NCBI GenBank assembly: GCA_963823915.1
Contig: CAWGNJ010000002.1
Location: 79,192 to 143,191, forward strand
DNA length: 64,000 nt
Direction: 5' to 3'
Source: an uncultured Actinomycetota bacterium
GTDB taxonomy: Bacteria > Actinomycetota > Acidimicrobiia > Spongiisociales > UBA4744
Shown: piece by piece, positions 5,875 through 37,517 of the stretch
Position numbering within the stretch: position 1 is the stretch's first letter
Layout of the letters: every line of letters begins with the position of its first letter
Notes under the pieces: generated by a model
What the model saw: only the letters and a program-made list of their open reading frames with translations
Database searches by the model: none
Told to the model about the DNA's origin: nothing
Position numbers and translations under genes: made by a program

Positions 5875-6498
5875 ATGCGCAAAGCCATCGCAGCCATTGC
5901 GACTGCGGCGATCGTTCTCGGCGGATTCTCCGTCGCCCTGGTCGTCCAGTCGCCGGACGTGGCCTCCGCTCAGGAGGTCGAGACGGAGGACACCCGCACA
6001 ACCGTTCCAGAAAGCGTCGAAGACATCCTGGCCGATCTGGTCGAGGACGGCGTGATCACCGAGGGGCAATCCACCCAGATCTCCGAAGCCCTGCGGCAAC
6101 GAGTCGGGCCTCTTCGGGAACACCGCGGCGGGTTCGCTCGTGGAGCCCAACTGGAGACGATCGCAGGGGTGATCGACATCGAGGTTGAAGACCTCGCCGC
6201 AGCTCTTCGAGACGGACAGACGATTGCCGAGGTAGCCGAGGCCAACGGATCTTCGGCCCAGGCCGTGATCGACACCCTCGTCGCAGAGATGAACACCAAT
6301 CTCGATCAAGCGATTGAGGACGGAAAGCTGACCACCGAGAAAGCTGACGAGATCAGGACCGACGCACCTGAGCGGATCCGGTCGATGGTCAACGGAGAGT
6401 TCGAAGGCCGCAAGGGTTTCGACGGACATCGGCGCATGGGCCCCGGACCGGGACTCAGTTTCGATGACGCACCTAACGCCGCGGAGACCAGCGCCTAG
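5875..6498 (+). CDS. secreted helical-repeat protein with (I/L)(T/S)xxQ motifs (paralog 1)
   Basis: Signal peptide ending ASA-QE, AGGAG 7 nt before the ATG, and motifs VITEGQSTQI and KLTTEKADEI. Clear paralog of 7235-8287 (shared AQAVIDTLVAE / TQAVIDALVAE, ..MVNGE). Confidence 0.7.
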   Translation: MRKAIAAIATAAIVLGGFSVALVVQSPDVASAQEVETEDTRTTVPESVEDILADLVEDGVITEGQSTQISEALRQRVGPLREHRGGFARGAQLETIAGVIDIEVEDLAAALRDGQTIAEVAEANGSSAQAVIDTLVAEMNTNLDQAIEDGKLTTEKADEIRTDAPERIRSMVNGEFEGRKGFDGHRRMGPGPGLSFDDAPNAAETSA

Positions 6499-6517: not shown

Positions 6518-6551
6518 CCCTTCCCCCTCCCGCCGGCGGGAGGGGGAAGGG
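6518..6551 (+). terminator. 17-bp perfect palindrome after CDS 5875-6498 (also a G/C-tract hairpin family member)
   Basis: cccttccccctcccgcc|ggcgggagggggaaggg. No U-tract. Confidence 0.6.
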
Positions 6552-9218: not shown

Positions 9219-9267
9219 GTTTTGGCGTCGCAGGACCACGCCACGCGTGTTTCCACGACGCCAAAAC
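9219..9267. repeat. nested-hairpin repeat, copy 1 (GTTTTGGCGTCG-25 nt-CGACGCCAAAAC)
   Basis: 12-bp outer stem. Inner stem CACGC/GCGTG (9237-9249). In a divergent intergenic region. Confidence 0.85.
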
Positions 9268-16453: not shown

Positions 16454-17200
16454 ACCTTCGCCGACGCAACGGCGGGCGCGGTCCCGGCGGAGAGCGTCTG
16501 ATGATCGACCCGGGCGTCGTGTTGTCACTCCGGGGGGTCACCAAGACCTATCCGGGCACCCCGCCGGTGCGGGCGCTGCGAGGTGTAGATCTGAAAATCC
16601 GACTGGGAGAGCTGGCCGGCATCGTCGGGCCGTCCGGGTCCGGAAAGTCGACCTTGCTCCACATCATGGGCACTCTTGATCTGCCCACGCGCGGAGAGGT
16701 TCACCTGGCCGGGCATCAGGTCTCCGCCTTGAACGACAAAGAACTGTCAGCGCTCGGTCGCGCCACATCGGTTTTGTCTTCCAGCAGTTCCATCTCCTCA
16801 ACAGCCAGTCGGCCTTGGACAACGTGGCGGACGGCCTGCTCTACACCGGTACGCCGATCGCAGAGCGCCGGGAGCTCGCCGGCGCTGCCCTGCAACGGGT
16901 CGGGTCTGGGCCATCGGCTCGATCACTCGCCAACAAATTGTCCGGCGGCGAACGGCAGCGGGTGGCGGTCGCCCGGGCCATCGTCGGCCGGCCGGCGATG
17001 GTGCTGGCAGACGAACCAACCGGCAATCTCGACAGCAAGTCCTCGGACGGCATCGTCGAGCTGATCGAAGAACTCAACGCCGAAGGCATAACCATGCTGG
17101 TCATCACCCACAACCAGGAGATTGCCGAGCGATTCCCCCGGCAAGTTGGCGCTTCTCGACGGGACGATCGAATACGATCGCGCATCGGCGGCGGCTGTGA
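16450..17200 (+). CDS. ABC transporter ATP-binding protein (MacB/LolD type), frame-interrupted
   Basis: [12 protein letters not shown] in 16450-17064 and LSGGERQRVAVARA..LADEPTGNLD in 16815-17465. Breaks near 16760 and 17150. 3' end approximate. Confidence 0.8.
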
Positions 17201-17201
17201 C

Positions 17202-18399
17202 ATGCCGCACCGAGCTGATCCCAGCAAACTCCACGCCGGCGACATCCTCCGCACCTCCGCTGTAGGACTGCGCACCAGAAAGATGCGGGCGGCCCTCTCG
17301 GCGCTTGGCATCATGATCGGCATCGCCTCAATGGTCGCCGTGCTCGGACTCTCCGAATCATCAAAGTCCGACCTGCTCGCCCAACTCGACCGGCTGGGCA
17401 CCAATCTGCTCACCGTCCAGGCCGGGGACCGGGATCGGTCGCGGCAACGGCGAATTGCCGGCTGAGGCGGCGGCGATGGTCGAACGTATCGGACCGGTCG
17501 ACGAGGTCTCGTCGGCAAGCGATATCGACGCCAACGTGTACCGCACCGACTACATCCCCTCCGGCCAATCCGGCGGCATCACCGTCAAGGCGGTGGACAT
17601 CGAACCTGTTGACACGCTGCAGGGAACCGTGGCCGACGGGCGTTTTCTCGACGAAGCCAGCGGCGCATACCCGACGGTGGTGCTCGGAGCGGTGGCTGCA
17701 GAACGGTTGGGCATCACCGACCTCGACGGCAACCCGCTCGTCTGGCTCGGCGACCAGTGGTTCGGCGTCATCGGCATTCTCGAACAGTTCGACCTGAGCG
17801 CCGATCTCGACCGGGCCGCGCTGGTCGGCTGGAGGCCGCTGCAGACGTACTTCGAGTCGAGAACATGCCCGACGTCATCTACGTTCGAACGGATCCCGAG
17901 CAAGTCGACAATGTGATGGGCGTGTTGGCCGCCACCGACCAATCCGGAGAACCCGGAGGAGGTCGAGGTGGCTCGACCGTCCGACGCTCTCGAAGCTCGG
18001 GATGCCGCCGAGATGCCTTCACCGCGCTGTTCCTCGGGCTGGGGGCGGTCGCGCTCTGGTCGGCGGGGTCGGCATCGCCAACGTGATGGTGATCTCGGTG
18101 CTGGAACGCCGGGCCGAGATCGGCCTGCGCCGCGCGCTCGGTGCGACCAAGCGCCACATGCCATCCAGTTCCTCGGGGAAGCGTTGTTGCTGGCCGTCAT
18201 CGGTGGCGTCGGCGGCGTGATCCTCGGATCGGCAGTAACCGCCGGGTACGCCTCCATCCGTGGTTGGGGGATTCTCATCCCGGAGATTGCCCTGATCGGT
18301 GGATTCGCAGCTGCAATCTTGATCGGCGCCATCGCCGGCCTCTACCCGGCCCTTCGAGCAGCTCGCCTCTCCCCCACCGAGGCCTTGAGAACCACCTAA
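17202..18399 (+). CDS. FtsX/MacB-type ABC permease, frame-interrupted
   Basis: N-terminus LRTRKMRAALSALGIMIGIASMV, periplasmic core in 17455-17916, FtsX C-terminus in 17968-18399 (GLYPALRAARLSPTEALR). At least 3 breaks. Confidence 0.75.
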
Positions 18400-18403
18400 A
18401 AGC

Positions 18404-18454
18404 GGTTTTGGCGTCGTTGATGCATGCTGTCCATGTCTGCACGACGCCAAAACC
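18404..18454. repeat. nested-hairpin repeat, copy 2 (inverted loop orientation)
   Basis: GGTTTTGGCGTCGT / ACGACGCCAAAACC, 14-bp stem. Inner stem CATG/CATG (18423-18435). Between convergent stops 18399 and 18461. Confidence 0.9.
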
Positions 18455-23587: not shown

Positions 23588-23597
23588 TGAGAATGGT

Positions 23598-23616
23598 ATA
23601 TGTGTTTCACATATAT
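23598..23616. promoter_or_regulatory. perfect inverted repeat TATATGTG-ttt-CACATATA upstream of the PadR gene
   Basis: Read directly, 11 nt beyond the putative start at 23587. Confidence 0.45.
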
Positions 23617-23656
23617 GTCAACAACATTGTTACTGACATATTCCATTACCGACTGT

Positions 23657-23704
23657 TTTAGCGTCAATCTTGCACCACCGGTGGAGTCAATTTGACGTCA
23701 AAAA
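23657..23704. repeat. nested-hairpin repeat, diverged copy
   Basis: TTTTAGCGTCAA..TTGACGTCAAAA (10 of 12 bases pair). Inner stem CCACC/GGTGG. Confidence 0.55.
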
Positions 23705-24330: not shown

Positions 24331-24800
24331 ATGGGCATCGAAATCGAGCGCAAATTCCTGATCGCCACCGAAGACTGGCGCGGCCTGGCGCAGGGTTTGG
24401 ACTACCGGCAGGGATACCTCTCTACGGCAAAGAGCGGACCGTGCGAGTACGAACGATCGGCGCCCAAGGCTATTTGACGATCAAGGGAATCTCGATCGGG
24501 GCCAGCCGAACGGAGTATGAATACGAGATCCCGGTCGATGACGCCCACGAGCTACTCGACGAGCTGTGCTTGCGGCCCCTCATCGAGAAGCGCCGGCACC
24601 GGGTCCCCTTCGGCGGGTTGATCTGGGAGATCGACGAGTTCTTCGGCGAGAATCACGGGTTGATCGTCGCCGAAGTCGAACTGACCTCCGAGGATCAAGA
24701 CGTCGAACTCCCACCGTGGATCGGTGAGGAGGTCACCGGCGATCCGCGCTACTTCAATTCCAGTCTCGTCGAACGCCCCTTCTCCACCTGGAACGACTGA
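24331..24800 (+). CDS. CYTH domain protein (triphosphatase / class IV cyclase fold), frame-interrupted
   Basis: MGIEIERKFLIA start. ORF 24441-24800 continues RVRTIGAQGYLTIKG..EYEYEI..WEIDEF..AEVEL. Break at the A-run 24429-24431. Confidence 0.8.
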
Positions 24801-24807
24801 CCAAGAC

Positions 24808-24858
24808 GGTTTTGGCGTCGCACAGACACGCACACCGTGCTTCCACGACGCCAAAACC
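24808..24858. repeat. nested-hairpin repeat, copy 3
   Basis: GGTTTTGGCGTCG / CGACGCCAAAACC. Inner stem CACG/CGTG (24827-24839). Between convergent stops 24800 and 24863. Confidence 0.9.
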
Positions 24859-24862
24859 TGAA

Positions 24863-26308
24863 TCAATCCTCCAGATTGACGTAGATGTGCTTGGTTTCGA
24901 GGAAAGACTCAAGACCGTGCTGGCCTAATTCTCGGCCGACACCGGATTGCTTGTAGCCGCCCCACATGGCTTCAGAGGGCGCCGGTTGGGTGTCGTTGAT
25001 CCACACGATCCCGGCCCGCAATGCTCGAGAAACCTTCAGCGCCTTGGTGATGTCATTGGTCCACACCGAAGCGGCCAGACCGTAGATCGAGTCGTTGGCG
25101 ATCCTGACGGCTTCATCGACATCGTCGAAGGGGATCACCGCCATCACGGGCCCGAAGATCTCCTCCCGGGCAATCGTCATCTGGTTGTCGACGTCCGCAA
25201 AGATCGTCGGGGGAACGCAAGTACCCGCCGGCCAACTTGGCATCCGATGGTCTCTCGCCTTCGAAAACCAATCGGGCACCTGACTCCTTGCCGATCTCGA
25301 TGTACTTCTCCACCCGTCGTGGTGCTCGGAGGTCACCATCGGACCCATCGTCGTATCCGGGTCCATACCGTCGCCCAACTTCAGGTCGGCGGCGTATTGG
25401 CTCATCGCCTCCAGCGCCTCGTCGTAGATCGACCTTTCGACCAGGACCCGCGAACCGGCCGAGCACACCTCGCCCTGGTTGTAAAAGACCCCGATGGCGC
25501 TTCCCTCATAGGCATCAGCAAGGGTGGCGTCGGAGAACACGAGATTCGGGGACTTCCCGCCCAGTTCCATCGTCACTCGCTTCATGGTTTCGGCCGCCAG
25601 CTTGGTGATCCGCTTCCCCACCTCATCCGACCCGGTGAAGGAGATCTTGTCGACTCCAGGGTGGGTTACGAGAGCATCACCGACGCTGGAGCCCGGTCCG
25701 TTCAGCACGTTGAACACCCCGGGAGGGAGGCCGGCTTCGTCGAGTATCCGGGCCAATTCCAGGGACGACAGCGGTGTCGGTGTGGCAGGCTTGAGGATGG
25801 CCGTACAACCCGCCGCCAGCGCTGGAGCCATCTTCTGACTGGCCATCAACACCGGGTAGTTCCACGGCGTTATCAACGCTGCTACTCCCACCGGTTCCTT
25901 GACGATCAGACTCATTGCATCCGGGCCGACCGGTGGAATGGACCCCATGACCTTGGTGGTCCATCCGGCGTAGTACTCGAACATGAAGGCCGACTCATCG
26001 AATCCTCCAAGGCGTCGGAATACAGCTTTCCGTTGTCTCTCGTCTCCAACTCGGCGAGCTTCTCGCGGTCACGACGCATGATCTCGGCCGCCCGGAAGAG
26101 GATGGTTGCCCGCTCGCGGGGAGAAGATCAGGCCCCCACGGGCCTTCGTCAAAAGCTCTTCGAGCCGCAGCGACTGCCTTGTCGACGTCGGCGGGCGATC
26201 CGGCGGCATACTCGGCAATCACCTCTCCAGTCGCCGGGTTTCGAGTTTGGCGGGATCGCCCTCGAGGGCGTCGGTCCACGTTCCATCGATATAGAGCTGC
26301 GCGGTCAT
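24863..26308 (-). CDS. NAD(P)-dependent aldehyde dehydrogenase, frame-interrupted
   Basis: ITPWNYP, FTGS, MELGGKSP, NQGEVCSAGSR, EEIFGPV. Start at MTAQLYIDG (ATG 26308, GGAGG upstream). At least 4 breaks. Confidence 0.85.
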
Positions 26309-34765: not shown

Positions 34766-34814
34766 GTTTTGGCGTCGTACAGACACGAGTGGCGTGTACG
34801 TGTGACGCCAAAAC
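34766..34814. repeat. nested-hairpin repeat, copy 4
   Basis: GTTTTGGCGTC / GACGCCAAAAC. Inner stem ACACG/CGTGT (34783-34797). Between convergent stops 34762 and 34825. Confidence 0.85.
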
Positions 34815-37392: not shown

Positions 37393-37517
37393 GGCGACAT
37401 TGTGCCATCCATCCAGTCCGGTTCCGGCGTGACTTGCCTGCCATATGGGCAGGTTTCTCACGCAAGTATGGGAAGACCGCTAAGTCGCTCGGCTTGGCGT
37501 TCCGATAATCAACTGCA

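Follow-up and report, generated by a model that had tools for sequence, protein, structure and literature searches.

A palindromic hairpin repeat family of Acidimicrobiia and its association with genes of a predicted AbiEi–Vsr-like nuclease

Two nuclease-linked families of hairpin repeats are known, namely the repetitive extragenic palindromes (REPs) with their REP-associated tyrosine transposases (RAYTs) of the HUH type, and the NTS/SRM hairpin repeats that accompany the Ssn GIY-YIG single-strand nucleases in the recently reported arrangement NTS-ssnA-NTS (Nat Commun 2025, PMC11893778). Here we describe a hairpin family in a 64-kb stretch of DNA from an uncultured bacterium of the Acidimicrobiia (contig CAWGNJ010000002.1, positions 79,192 to 143,191; the whole stretch is referred to as the window), with the copy at window positions 24808-24858 as focal element. 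In other metagenome-assembled genomes (MAGs), copies of the same hairpin bracket the gene of a ~310-aa protein, for which an AbiEi-type winged helix-turn-helix (wHTH) module and a Vsr-like nuclease domain (EDxHD / PD-(D/E)xK) are predicted in one chain. The window repeats are best read as solo copies of a DNA-level palindromic family that serves as the cognate site of this AbiEi–Vsr-like protein, a reading to which we assign a probability of roughly 0.65. The underlying logic is shared with REP/RAYT and NTS/Ssn; the third, unrelated nuclease and the new host clade are what is new.

Like REPs, the hairpins are short and extragenic, number tens to hundreds, come in variants specific to the genome and favour the 3' ends of genes; in both systems a low-copy, largely vertically inherited nuclease gene is bracketed by two repeats. 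In contrast to RAYTs, which are HUH/Y1 enzymes, the partner is an AbiEi wHTH joined to a Vsr-like PD-(D/E)xK domain. Moreover, the Acidimicrobiia family is without a GTAG-like guide tetranucleotide, and it forms a single 47-nt symmetric hairpin whose foot is conserved across a bacterial class while its top varies. With NTS/Ssn it shares the order repeat, nuclease gene, repeat, the dispersal of hairpins of 20–50 nt, the co-variation of repeat variants with nuclease homologues and the expansion of copy number in certain lineages (PMC11893778). Still, Ssn is a single-domain GIY-YIG protein (cd10448) of mainly Gram-negative hosts, whereas the predicted activity here resides in a Vsr-like domain attached to a large DNA-binding module, and no GIY-YIG domain was matched in the ~310-aa protein. 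The NTS repeats are also oriented by a 5' flank that is conserved and asymmetric, while the arms here are perfectly symmetric.

The closest counterpart of the nuclease domain is I-Bth0305I, prototypical of the Vsr-like EDxHD homing endonucleases. This enzyme likewise binds DNA through its N-terminal region and has a Vsr-like nuclease (3r3p) at the C-terminus, and it works as a dimer at a pseudopalindromic site (PMC3239194). It differs in that it resides in a group I intron, homes into the intron-less allele and binds DNA through a NUMOD/HTH part, as opposed to the free-standing intergenic open reading frame (ORF) between two hairpins and the AbiEi-like module described here. AbiEi proteins control their own expression through inverted repeats in the promoter, to which they bind. 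The likeness to AbiEi of the type IV AbiE toxin–antitoxin system extends to the sequence and fold of the N-terminal ~200 aa and to inverted repeats upstream of the gene. Unlike AbiE, there is no adjacent AbiEii nucleotidyltransferase, a nuclease domain is fused to the protein, and the inverted repeats are dispersed over the genome. Integron attC sites are comparable as imperfect palindromes with a variable centre; recognition through structure and short conserved ends, as in attC, would apply here as well, and single genes bounded by two sites are present or absent between relatives (pfk, see below). The ends, however, occur in the opposite order (GTTTTGG...CCAAAAC, as against RYYYAAC...GTTRRRY in attC), the length is fixed at ~47 nt, and single copies are scattered between housekeeping genes. 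No integrase, attI site or cassette array was noted in the loci examined, the integrase search being non-exhaustive. The searchable literature contained no description of the hairpin family or of its nuclease association, and nothing on Acidimicrobiia repeats or DUF559 palindromes; sequence matches in it were unrelated primers (e.g. luciferase).

The hairpin family in the window and beyond

Four copies of the hairpin were identified in the window:

24808-24858: solo hairpin, focal copy; 13-bp outer stem GGTTTTGGCGTCG/CGACGCCAAAACC, 25-nt inner part with stem CACG/CGTG
9219-9267: solo hairpin; inner stem CACGC/GCGTG; covariance model 55.7 bits, fold z −5.9
18404-18454: solo hairpin; inner part inverted relative to the other three; covariance model 51.6 bits
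34766-34814: solo hairpin; inner stem ACACG/CGTGT, one G:T pair in the outer stem; covariance model 54.5 bits, fold z −5.0

The 12-mer outer arm GTTTTGGCGTCG occurs exactly at 9219, 18405, 24809 and 34766 when the whole window is searched. Its reverse complement follows at 9256-9267, 18442-18453, 24846-24857 and, with one mismatch, 34803-34814, so spaced that 25 nt separate the two in all four copies. Allowing two mismatches or fewer to GTTTTGGCGTCG, 20 matches were obtained as compared to 6.9 expected, and 0 of 100 shuffles of the window reached 20. Each copy folds into an outer stem of 12–15 bp, a small internal loop, an inner stem of 4–5 bp and a loop of 3–5 nt, with DNA-fold z-scores of −5.0 to −6.1, and all four were recovered by a covariance model at 50–56 bits. 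For the focal copy the model gave 53.6 bits (E 1.7e-14) and the fold −19 kcal/mol (z −5.6). The four copies reported by an earlier note on this DNA thus hold, as does its description of inner stems that differ while pairing is kept (CACGC/GCGTG, CACG/CGTG, ACACG/CGTGT and CATG/CATG). The word CAGACAYG, which that note ascribed to every copy, is present in three of the four, copy 9219 having CAGGACCACG in its place. The asymmetry of the inner part reveals orientation, and copy 18404 is therefore inverted relative to the other three, as had been proposed.

Pfam assignments of the neighbouring genes agree with the placement of three copies between convergent genes. The focal copy occupies the gap between the stop codons of CYTH (+) and ALDH (−), copy 18404 lies between FtsX-like (+) and ABC-2 permease (−), and copy 34766 between methyltransferase (+) and RtcB (−). 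Copy 9219 is located in a divergent gap, between DUF3039 (−) and an ORF without family assignment (+). Rfam, to which the earlier note had pointed, returned no family for either the whole window at gathering thresholds or the focal copy at E-value thresholds, merely meaningless sub-threshold microRNA matches; a tRNA/tmRNA scan likewise found none.

The family extends far beyond the window. A scan for the pattern TTTTGGCGTC-N22-30-GACGCCAAAA in one genome per species (185,579 species) detected at least 117 loci, nearly all in Acidimicrobiia or Actinomycetota MAGs (loci are denoted by the letter L in the following). The loci listed are spread over 53 assemblies (GC contents 0.60–0.73), and the family is present in about 50 of these; three or four listed loci from other phyla are apparent chance matches. 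Among the matches listed, at least 126 copies from ~50 species-level MAGs were collected, and the arms TTTTGGCGTC/GACGCCAAAA are common to copies across these ~50 species. The length is nearly fixed, at 47 nt in 75 and 48 nt in 34 of the 126 copies. A covariance-model search of 100 loci added essentially no diverged copies. Judging from the extra copies within loci, the typical density is about one copy per 140 kb.

The whole element is one long hairpin. Past ten fixed arm positions, positions 11–21 pair with 37–27, the inner positions being paired in 55–93% of the distinct copies by many different pair types, with a zone of weak pairing at positions 12–14 and a loop of ~5 nt. In a gapless alignment of 78 distinct copies, 82.8% of the cells were paired, compared to 69.2% in column shuffles (0/500) and ~40% when the partner was slid. 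The covariation score followed the same trend (0.347, versus 0.129 in shuffles, 0/500, and ~0.09 when slid), and 10–36 double changes were counted per inner pair. Copies elsewhere and compensatory variation of the inner stem, the two outcomes on which the note had staked its proposal, were hence both found. The inner 27 nt are genome-specific in that each genome has a few subfamilies, and certain types are common to related MAGs.

Three additional elements of the window bear on the extent of the family:

23657-23704: possible decayed copy, 48 nt; arms TTTTAGCGTCA/TGACGTCAAAA, inner palindrome CCACCGGTGG
37419-37468: possible relic copy, GGTTCCGGCGTGA...TCACGC, with a well-formed inner hairpin CCTGCC-ATATG-GGCAGG; 14.1 bits, E 0.058
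2161-2202: short look-alike hairpin, arms TTTTGGCGG/CCGCCAAAA; 22 bits, E 1.9e-4, fold −30 kcal/mol

The first of these had been counted as a fifth, diverged copy. It has the same layout as the others and is plausibly set in a divergent gap, but its statistics are marginal (covariance model 11.7 bits, E 0.33; fold z −2.85), and no clear counterpart was seen at the matching place in the syntenic relative L049; its membership in the family is uncertain. The element at 2161-2202 may be a relative of the family or may match by chance. Next to the possible decayed copy, a ~60-nt block at 23590-23650 is 100% identical to L049 amid DNA of ~77% identity. Its minus-strand sequence, ACAATGTTGTTGACATATATGTGAAACACATATACCATTC, contains a TTGACA box and short palindromes, and the block looks like a conserved promoter or operator. 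In other genomes, hairpins were also observed close to one another, 413 bp apart in L006 (7289-7795) and in tandem with 14 nt between them in L005 (46-153). Two canonical copies (L021, L117) are found on contigs binned as a Bifidobacterium breve MAG (CAMDCC) with a GC content of 0.66, which are probably mis-binned Acidimicrobiia DNA.

The nuclease gene between paired hairpins

In three loci, two copies of the hairpin are located ~1,000 bp apart, and each pair brackets a homologous ORF of ~310 aa. Searching the listed loci by tblastn and with a hidden Markov model (HMM) revealed seven such genes in seven MAGs, all of them (7/7) flanked on both sides. Some of the flanking copies differ by one or two arm changes, including the compensatory pair TTTCGGCGTC/GACGCCGAAA. 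Six more homologues, fetched by exact protein identity, were flanked as well (6/6), giving 13/13 units inspected by eye. The layout is uniform: a hairpin, a spacer of 30–60 nt, the ORF, and a second hairpin abutting or overlapping the stop codon. Several of the ORFs terminate inside the downstream hairpin, reading ...GFGV... or ...VLAS.... In five loci (L004, L015, L034, L118, L121) the motif TCGTTG.TGTC(A/C)CAG is found between the 5' hairpin and the ATG, and may represent the promoter or operator of the nuclease gene. The units occur at different chromosomal places, between convergent host genes; within a unit, the two hairpins may have their inner parts in the same or in opposite orientation, both arrangements being represented.

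A broader sample was provided by a metagenome scan, which returned at least 406 relatives; the following counts refer to the best 80. With a lenient hairpin finder, 59 of 71 genes (83%) had a hairpin upstream, 56 of 73 (77%) downstream and 43 of 65 on both sides, as compared to 9 of 247 control windows (3.6%). A strict finder gave 45/71, 47/73 and 31/65, respectively, and 0/247 in the controls. Many homologues are found on contigs of 1.0–1.5 kb, which suggests assembly breaks at the repeats. Among distant members of the protein family, two of the three examined have 5' and 3' hairpins with a common inner core and other arms; the flanks of the distant relative L213 are too short to judge.

Pfam recognizes AbiEi_4 (N-terminal wHTH) and, at a score under the gathering threshold, REase_MTES_1575 (C-terminal) in the protein, while PADLOC AbiEi models match residues ~7–180 at E values of 1e-27 to 1e-36. 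An AlphaFold2 model built from 70 homologues reached a mean pLDDT of 93. Foldseek aligned the N-terminal ~200 aa with the AbiEi antitoxin 6y8q, and the C-terminal 100 aa with the catalytic domain of I-Bth0305I (3r3p) at a TM score of 0.72–0.74 and a root-mean-square deviation of 3.1. Residues D238, S252 and H256 are invariant among 70 diverse members, and E249 and Y250 nearly so, within the motif R.D.AYP...IEY(D/E)S...H. With the residue mapping taken from sequence, this suggests that the predicted nuclease active site is intact.

The protein family is large, comprising 7,248 cluster representatives (50% identity) at E ≤ 1e-30, and the ~310-aa protein has neither an NCBIfam family nor a sequence relative in the PDB. 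A tblastn search of the PLSDB plasmids gave no match. The viral contigs of IMG/VR contained one weak partial match, and the family is therefore taken not to be phage-borne. In all loci examined the neighbours are unrelated metabolic genes, and no adjacent AbiEii toxin gene was seen.

The arms of the hairpins vary with the lineage of the protein. Over ~90 loci, the core GCGTC...GACGC is near-universal (GCGCC or GCGTG occur as occasional variants), and the outer six bp differ, with compensatory changes. The outer types comprise GTTTTG, GTTCTG, GTTCTT, GCTTTG, GAACTT, GAGGTT, GAAGTT, GAAATT, GAACCG and GTTCAT. Both copies around one gene have the same arm type, and arms of the kinds GTTxxx-GCGTC and GAxxxx-GCGTC split with the two main protein clades. 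Two paralogues on a single MAG contig are associated with GGCGTC and GGCGCC arms.

Turnover and genomic position

Comparison of orthologous sites revealed that a hairpin can be present alone or together with a gene. At a site between His_Phos_1 and SDR genes, L030 has a solo hairpin and L034, L118 and L125–130 have the unit hairpin–gene–hairpin, the flanks being 79–85% identical up to the hairpin edges. A second case is provided by L029 (solo) and L193 (unit); over both cases the flanks are 79–89% identical. The inner type of the solo hairpin in L030 is the common one of its own genome, not that of the orthologous units. No nuclease remnants were detected in loci with solo hairpins by HMM search of six-frame translations.

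The window itself takes part in this polymorphism. It is syntenic with L049, the closest relative found among the matches listed, at 77–80% identity, and at the site of copy 18404-18454 the relative has a pfk gene lying between a hairpin and a variant one, with ~1.2 kb of extra DNA:

L049 5714-6927: gene of a 360-aa ATP-phosphofructokinase with a hairpin on each side, one canonical, the other a variant (arms TCTTGGCGCTC/GAGCGCCAAAAC)

The inner sequences of the window hairpin and of the two hairpins in L049 are mutually unrelated. In many other orthologous pairs, the hairpin is kept at its site and the interior differs; the inner 27 nt are then unrelated, yet of a type that is common in each genome. 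Differing interiors at orthologous sites, together with the solo/unit polymorphism, indicate replacement or conversion of copies within genomes. Comparison of these sequences suggests that sites change between the solo and the gene-bearing state, be it through deletion between two hairpins or through insertion of the homing type. As a separate observation, an acyltransferase-like membrane ORF lies between two hairpins in L060 (2719-4119).

Gene contexts were derived with a crude gene caller based on GC3 (GC at third codon positions), which left 40 of 123 copies not classifiable and whose "in-gene" calls mostly represent over-extended 5' ends. For the 83 copies that could be classified, the setting is convergent in 41 (49%, whereas such gaps make up 24% of the total), tandem in 32 and divergent in 10. 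A median of 14 nt lies between the upstream stop codon and the hairpin, which in many cases fills the intergenic space completely. A T/U-tract after the stem is absent on either strand, T4 (5' foot) and A4 (3' foot) lying inside the stem, and a terminator and promoter scan of 24600-25100 gave 0 sites. Mismatches show no strand bias (G:T 87 versus A:C 86 overall; 13 versus 17 in the 26 copies oriented with the upstream gene). Direct repeats of 2–5 bp, as expected of target-site duplications, are no commoner in the flanks than in permutations. The flanks merely prolong the palindrome (CCG/G...C/CGG) and contain no asymmetric conserved word. The lack of a T-tract, of strand bias, of target-site duplication and of an Rfam match together favour a symmetric element that acts at the level of DNA. 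A canonical terminator and a structured RNA were considered as candidates and are disfavoured by the missing T-tract and the equal numbers of G:T and A:C mismatches. The post-stop location may reflect tolerance or targeting, and a secondary role as 3'-end hairpin is possible.

Several genes by hairpins in the window are apparently truncated or split (16815-18399, 24441-24800, 24863-25984). The ALDH ORF begins at position 96 of its Pfam profile and the CYTH ORF at position 54, and the FtsX-like permease consists of three ORFs where the counterpart in L049 is a single ORF of 355 aa. These could be frameshifts of a long-read assembly or real pseudogenes. Unrelated to the hairpin family, a perfect loop-less palindrome of 17+17 nt, CCCTTCCCCCTCCCGCC/GGCGGGAGGGGGAAGGG, is located at 6518-6551, just past an ORF ending at 6498.

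Explanation, alternatives and meaning

The family, its paired structure and covariation, its link to the nuclease gene, the correspondence of arms with protein clade and the solo/unit polymorphism are observed; recognition and spread are proposed on that basis. A mechanism that would account for these data is as follows. The repeat element would extrude as a hairpin or cruciform, of which the protein would read 11–13 bp at the stem foot, i.e. the GCGTC/GACGC core and six outer, lineage-specific bp, while the remainder would need pairing only. Conservation of the foot, which forms the junction in a cruciform, above which the stem is merely paired, is what would be expected if the wHTH reads the foot. 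The Vsr-like domain would then act on the extruded hairpin or junction, so that binding and cleavage may involve a single-stranded or cruciform substrate. Breaks made by the nuclease and repaired from other copies would be the copying mechanism that spreads and homogenises hairpins in a genome, and would also turn solo hairpins into hairpin–gene–hairpin units and back. Break repair from other copies would explain the homogenisation, the solo/unit polymorphism and the occasional host gene bounded by hairpins. Copies would persist mainly just past stop codons, notably in convergent gaps, where they may be least harmful, and secondarily serve as 3'-end hairpins.

A number of observations weigh against this reading. 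The window contains no nuclease gene or remnant according to HMM search of six-frame translations, hairpins are about tenfold denser in it (4–5 per 64 kb) than estimated for other MAGs, and the inner stems of the window copies are less perfect than elsewhere in the family. Selection is one possible source of the covariation among related copies, the copying of palindromic masters another. The correspondence of arms and protein clades is expressed in mean protein identities of 49.2% within and 44.9% between arm clades (0/2000 permutations) and in a Spearman coefficient of 0.37 between arm mismatches and protein distance, both figures being uncorrected for relatedness. Unrelated genes, namely pfk in L049 and the acyltransferase-like ORF in L060, are bracketed too, so that the nuclease gene is not the only one to be flanked. 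Lastly, the position after stop codons is equally compatible with a 3'-end or terminator role.

This last point leads to the alternative that the hairpins are 3'-end elements of host transcripts (terminators without U-tract, roadblocks or mRNA stabilisers), in which case the nuclease gene would be flanked because any small insert needs such elements. The median of 14 nt from the upstream stop, the doubled share of convergent gaps (41/83 against 24%), the many hairpin-only gaps, the convergent setting of three of the four window copies and the bracketing of pfk and the acyltransferase-like ORF all speak for it, and the bidirectional I-shaped terminator considered in the earlier note is supported to the extent that its position fits. 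The T/U-tract is nevertheless absent on both strands, and so are terminator-like sites. Neither the invariance of 10–13 bp arms over ~50 species with GC contents of 0.60–0.73 nor the co-variation of arms with nuclease clade is needed by a terminator, G:U does not exceed A:C on the sense strand, and the inner part occurs in either orientation relative to the flanked gene. We regard this alternative as unlikely, albeit by no means negligible, and a 3'-end function could be a secondary, co-opted role. A narrower view of the protein as an AbiEi-like autoregulator only, with the arms as operator half-sites, the dispersed copies as a regulon or decoys, an inactive or irrelevant nuclease domain and no mobility, draws on the clear AbiEi homology of the N-terminal 180–200 aa and on the hairpin found 30–60 nt before every start codon, followed by the motif TCGTTG.TGTC(A/C)CAG. 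A duplex operator, however, has no need of a self-complementary inner 27 nt, for which covariation is strong. Most dispersed copies are post-stop and not in promoters, the putative catalytic residues are invariant over 70 diverse members, and both the solo/unit polymorphism and the homogenisation within genomes point to DNA turnover, which leaves this view a small chance.

Mobile elements of established kinds fit less well. That the repeats are classical REP/REPIN sequences mobilised by a RAYT (an IS200-like Y1 HUH transposase) encoded elsewhere would agree with short extragenic imperfect palindromes, genome-specific subfamilies and the preference for gene 3' ends. Yet the bracketed gene is not a Y1 transposase, a conserved GTAG-type tetranucleotide beside the hairpin is absent, and no RAYT (PF01797) turned up in a non-exhaustive search of the loci. 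This explanation is accordingly very improbable. The suggestion of a REP-like, protein-recognition hairpin is nonetheless supported in kind, since the hairpin flanks a nuclease gene; the protein is not the RAYT/IS200 tyrosine transposase that had been given as an example. The MITE-like origin (miniature inverted-repeat transposable element) named alongside it was not supported. Conserved inverted termini, a variable interior, multiple copies and the frequent breaking of assemblies at hairpins are as expected of internally deleted transposon derivatives with the arms as terminal inverted repeats; on the other hand, direct-repeat flanks of 2–5 bp do not exceed permutations, no DDE or serine/tyrosine transposase or other autonomous partner of the transposase type is associated, complete hairpins and not single arms are found at both unit ends, and the interior is constrained to pair. 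Hardly any likelihood remains for this origin.

Returning to the reading of the repeats as cognate sites of the AbiEi–Vsr-like protein, a more far-reaching version can be formulated, which we put forward tentatively and consider possible but rather doubtful. In this version, the AbiEi–Vsr-like proteins at large, which form at least 7,000 clusters at 50% identity, would be nucleases with specificity for both structure and sequence, each matched to its own hairpin by ~6 variable foot bp. With their hairpins they would form a third independently evolved nuclease-and-repeat system that drives gene conversion between dispersed sites and possibly moves or deletes single hairpin-bounded genes, which would provide Acidimicrobiia with a cassette-like, integron-independent way of gaining and losing genes.

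Next to RAYT (HUH)/REP and Ssn (GIY-YIG)/NTS, a third class would make the coupling of nucleases to hairpin repeats a convergent and general strategy. A large protein family hitherto annotated as "hypothetical", "AbiEi antitoxin domain" or "very-short-patch-repair endonuclease" gains a testable DNA target, and the natural arm types (GTTTTG, GTTCTT, GAACCG, GAGGTT and others, each then followed by GCGTC) offer a ready specificity series to those in search of nucleases. In the Acidimicrobiia, which are abundant in soil and water and mostly uncultured, the hairpins would give rise to assembly breaks, to ectopic recombination and to variation in the presence and absence of genes.

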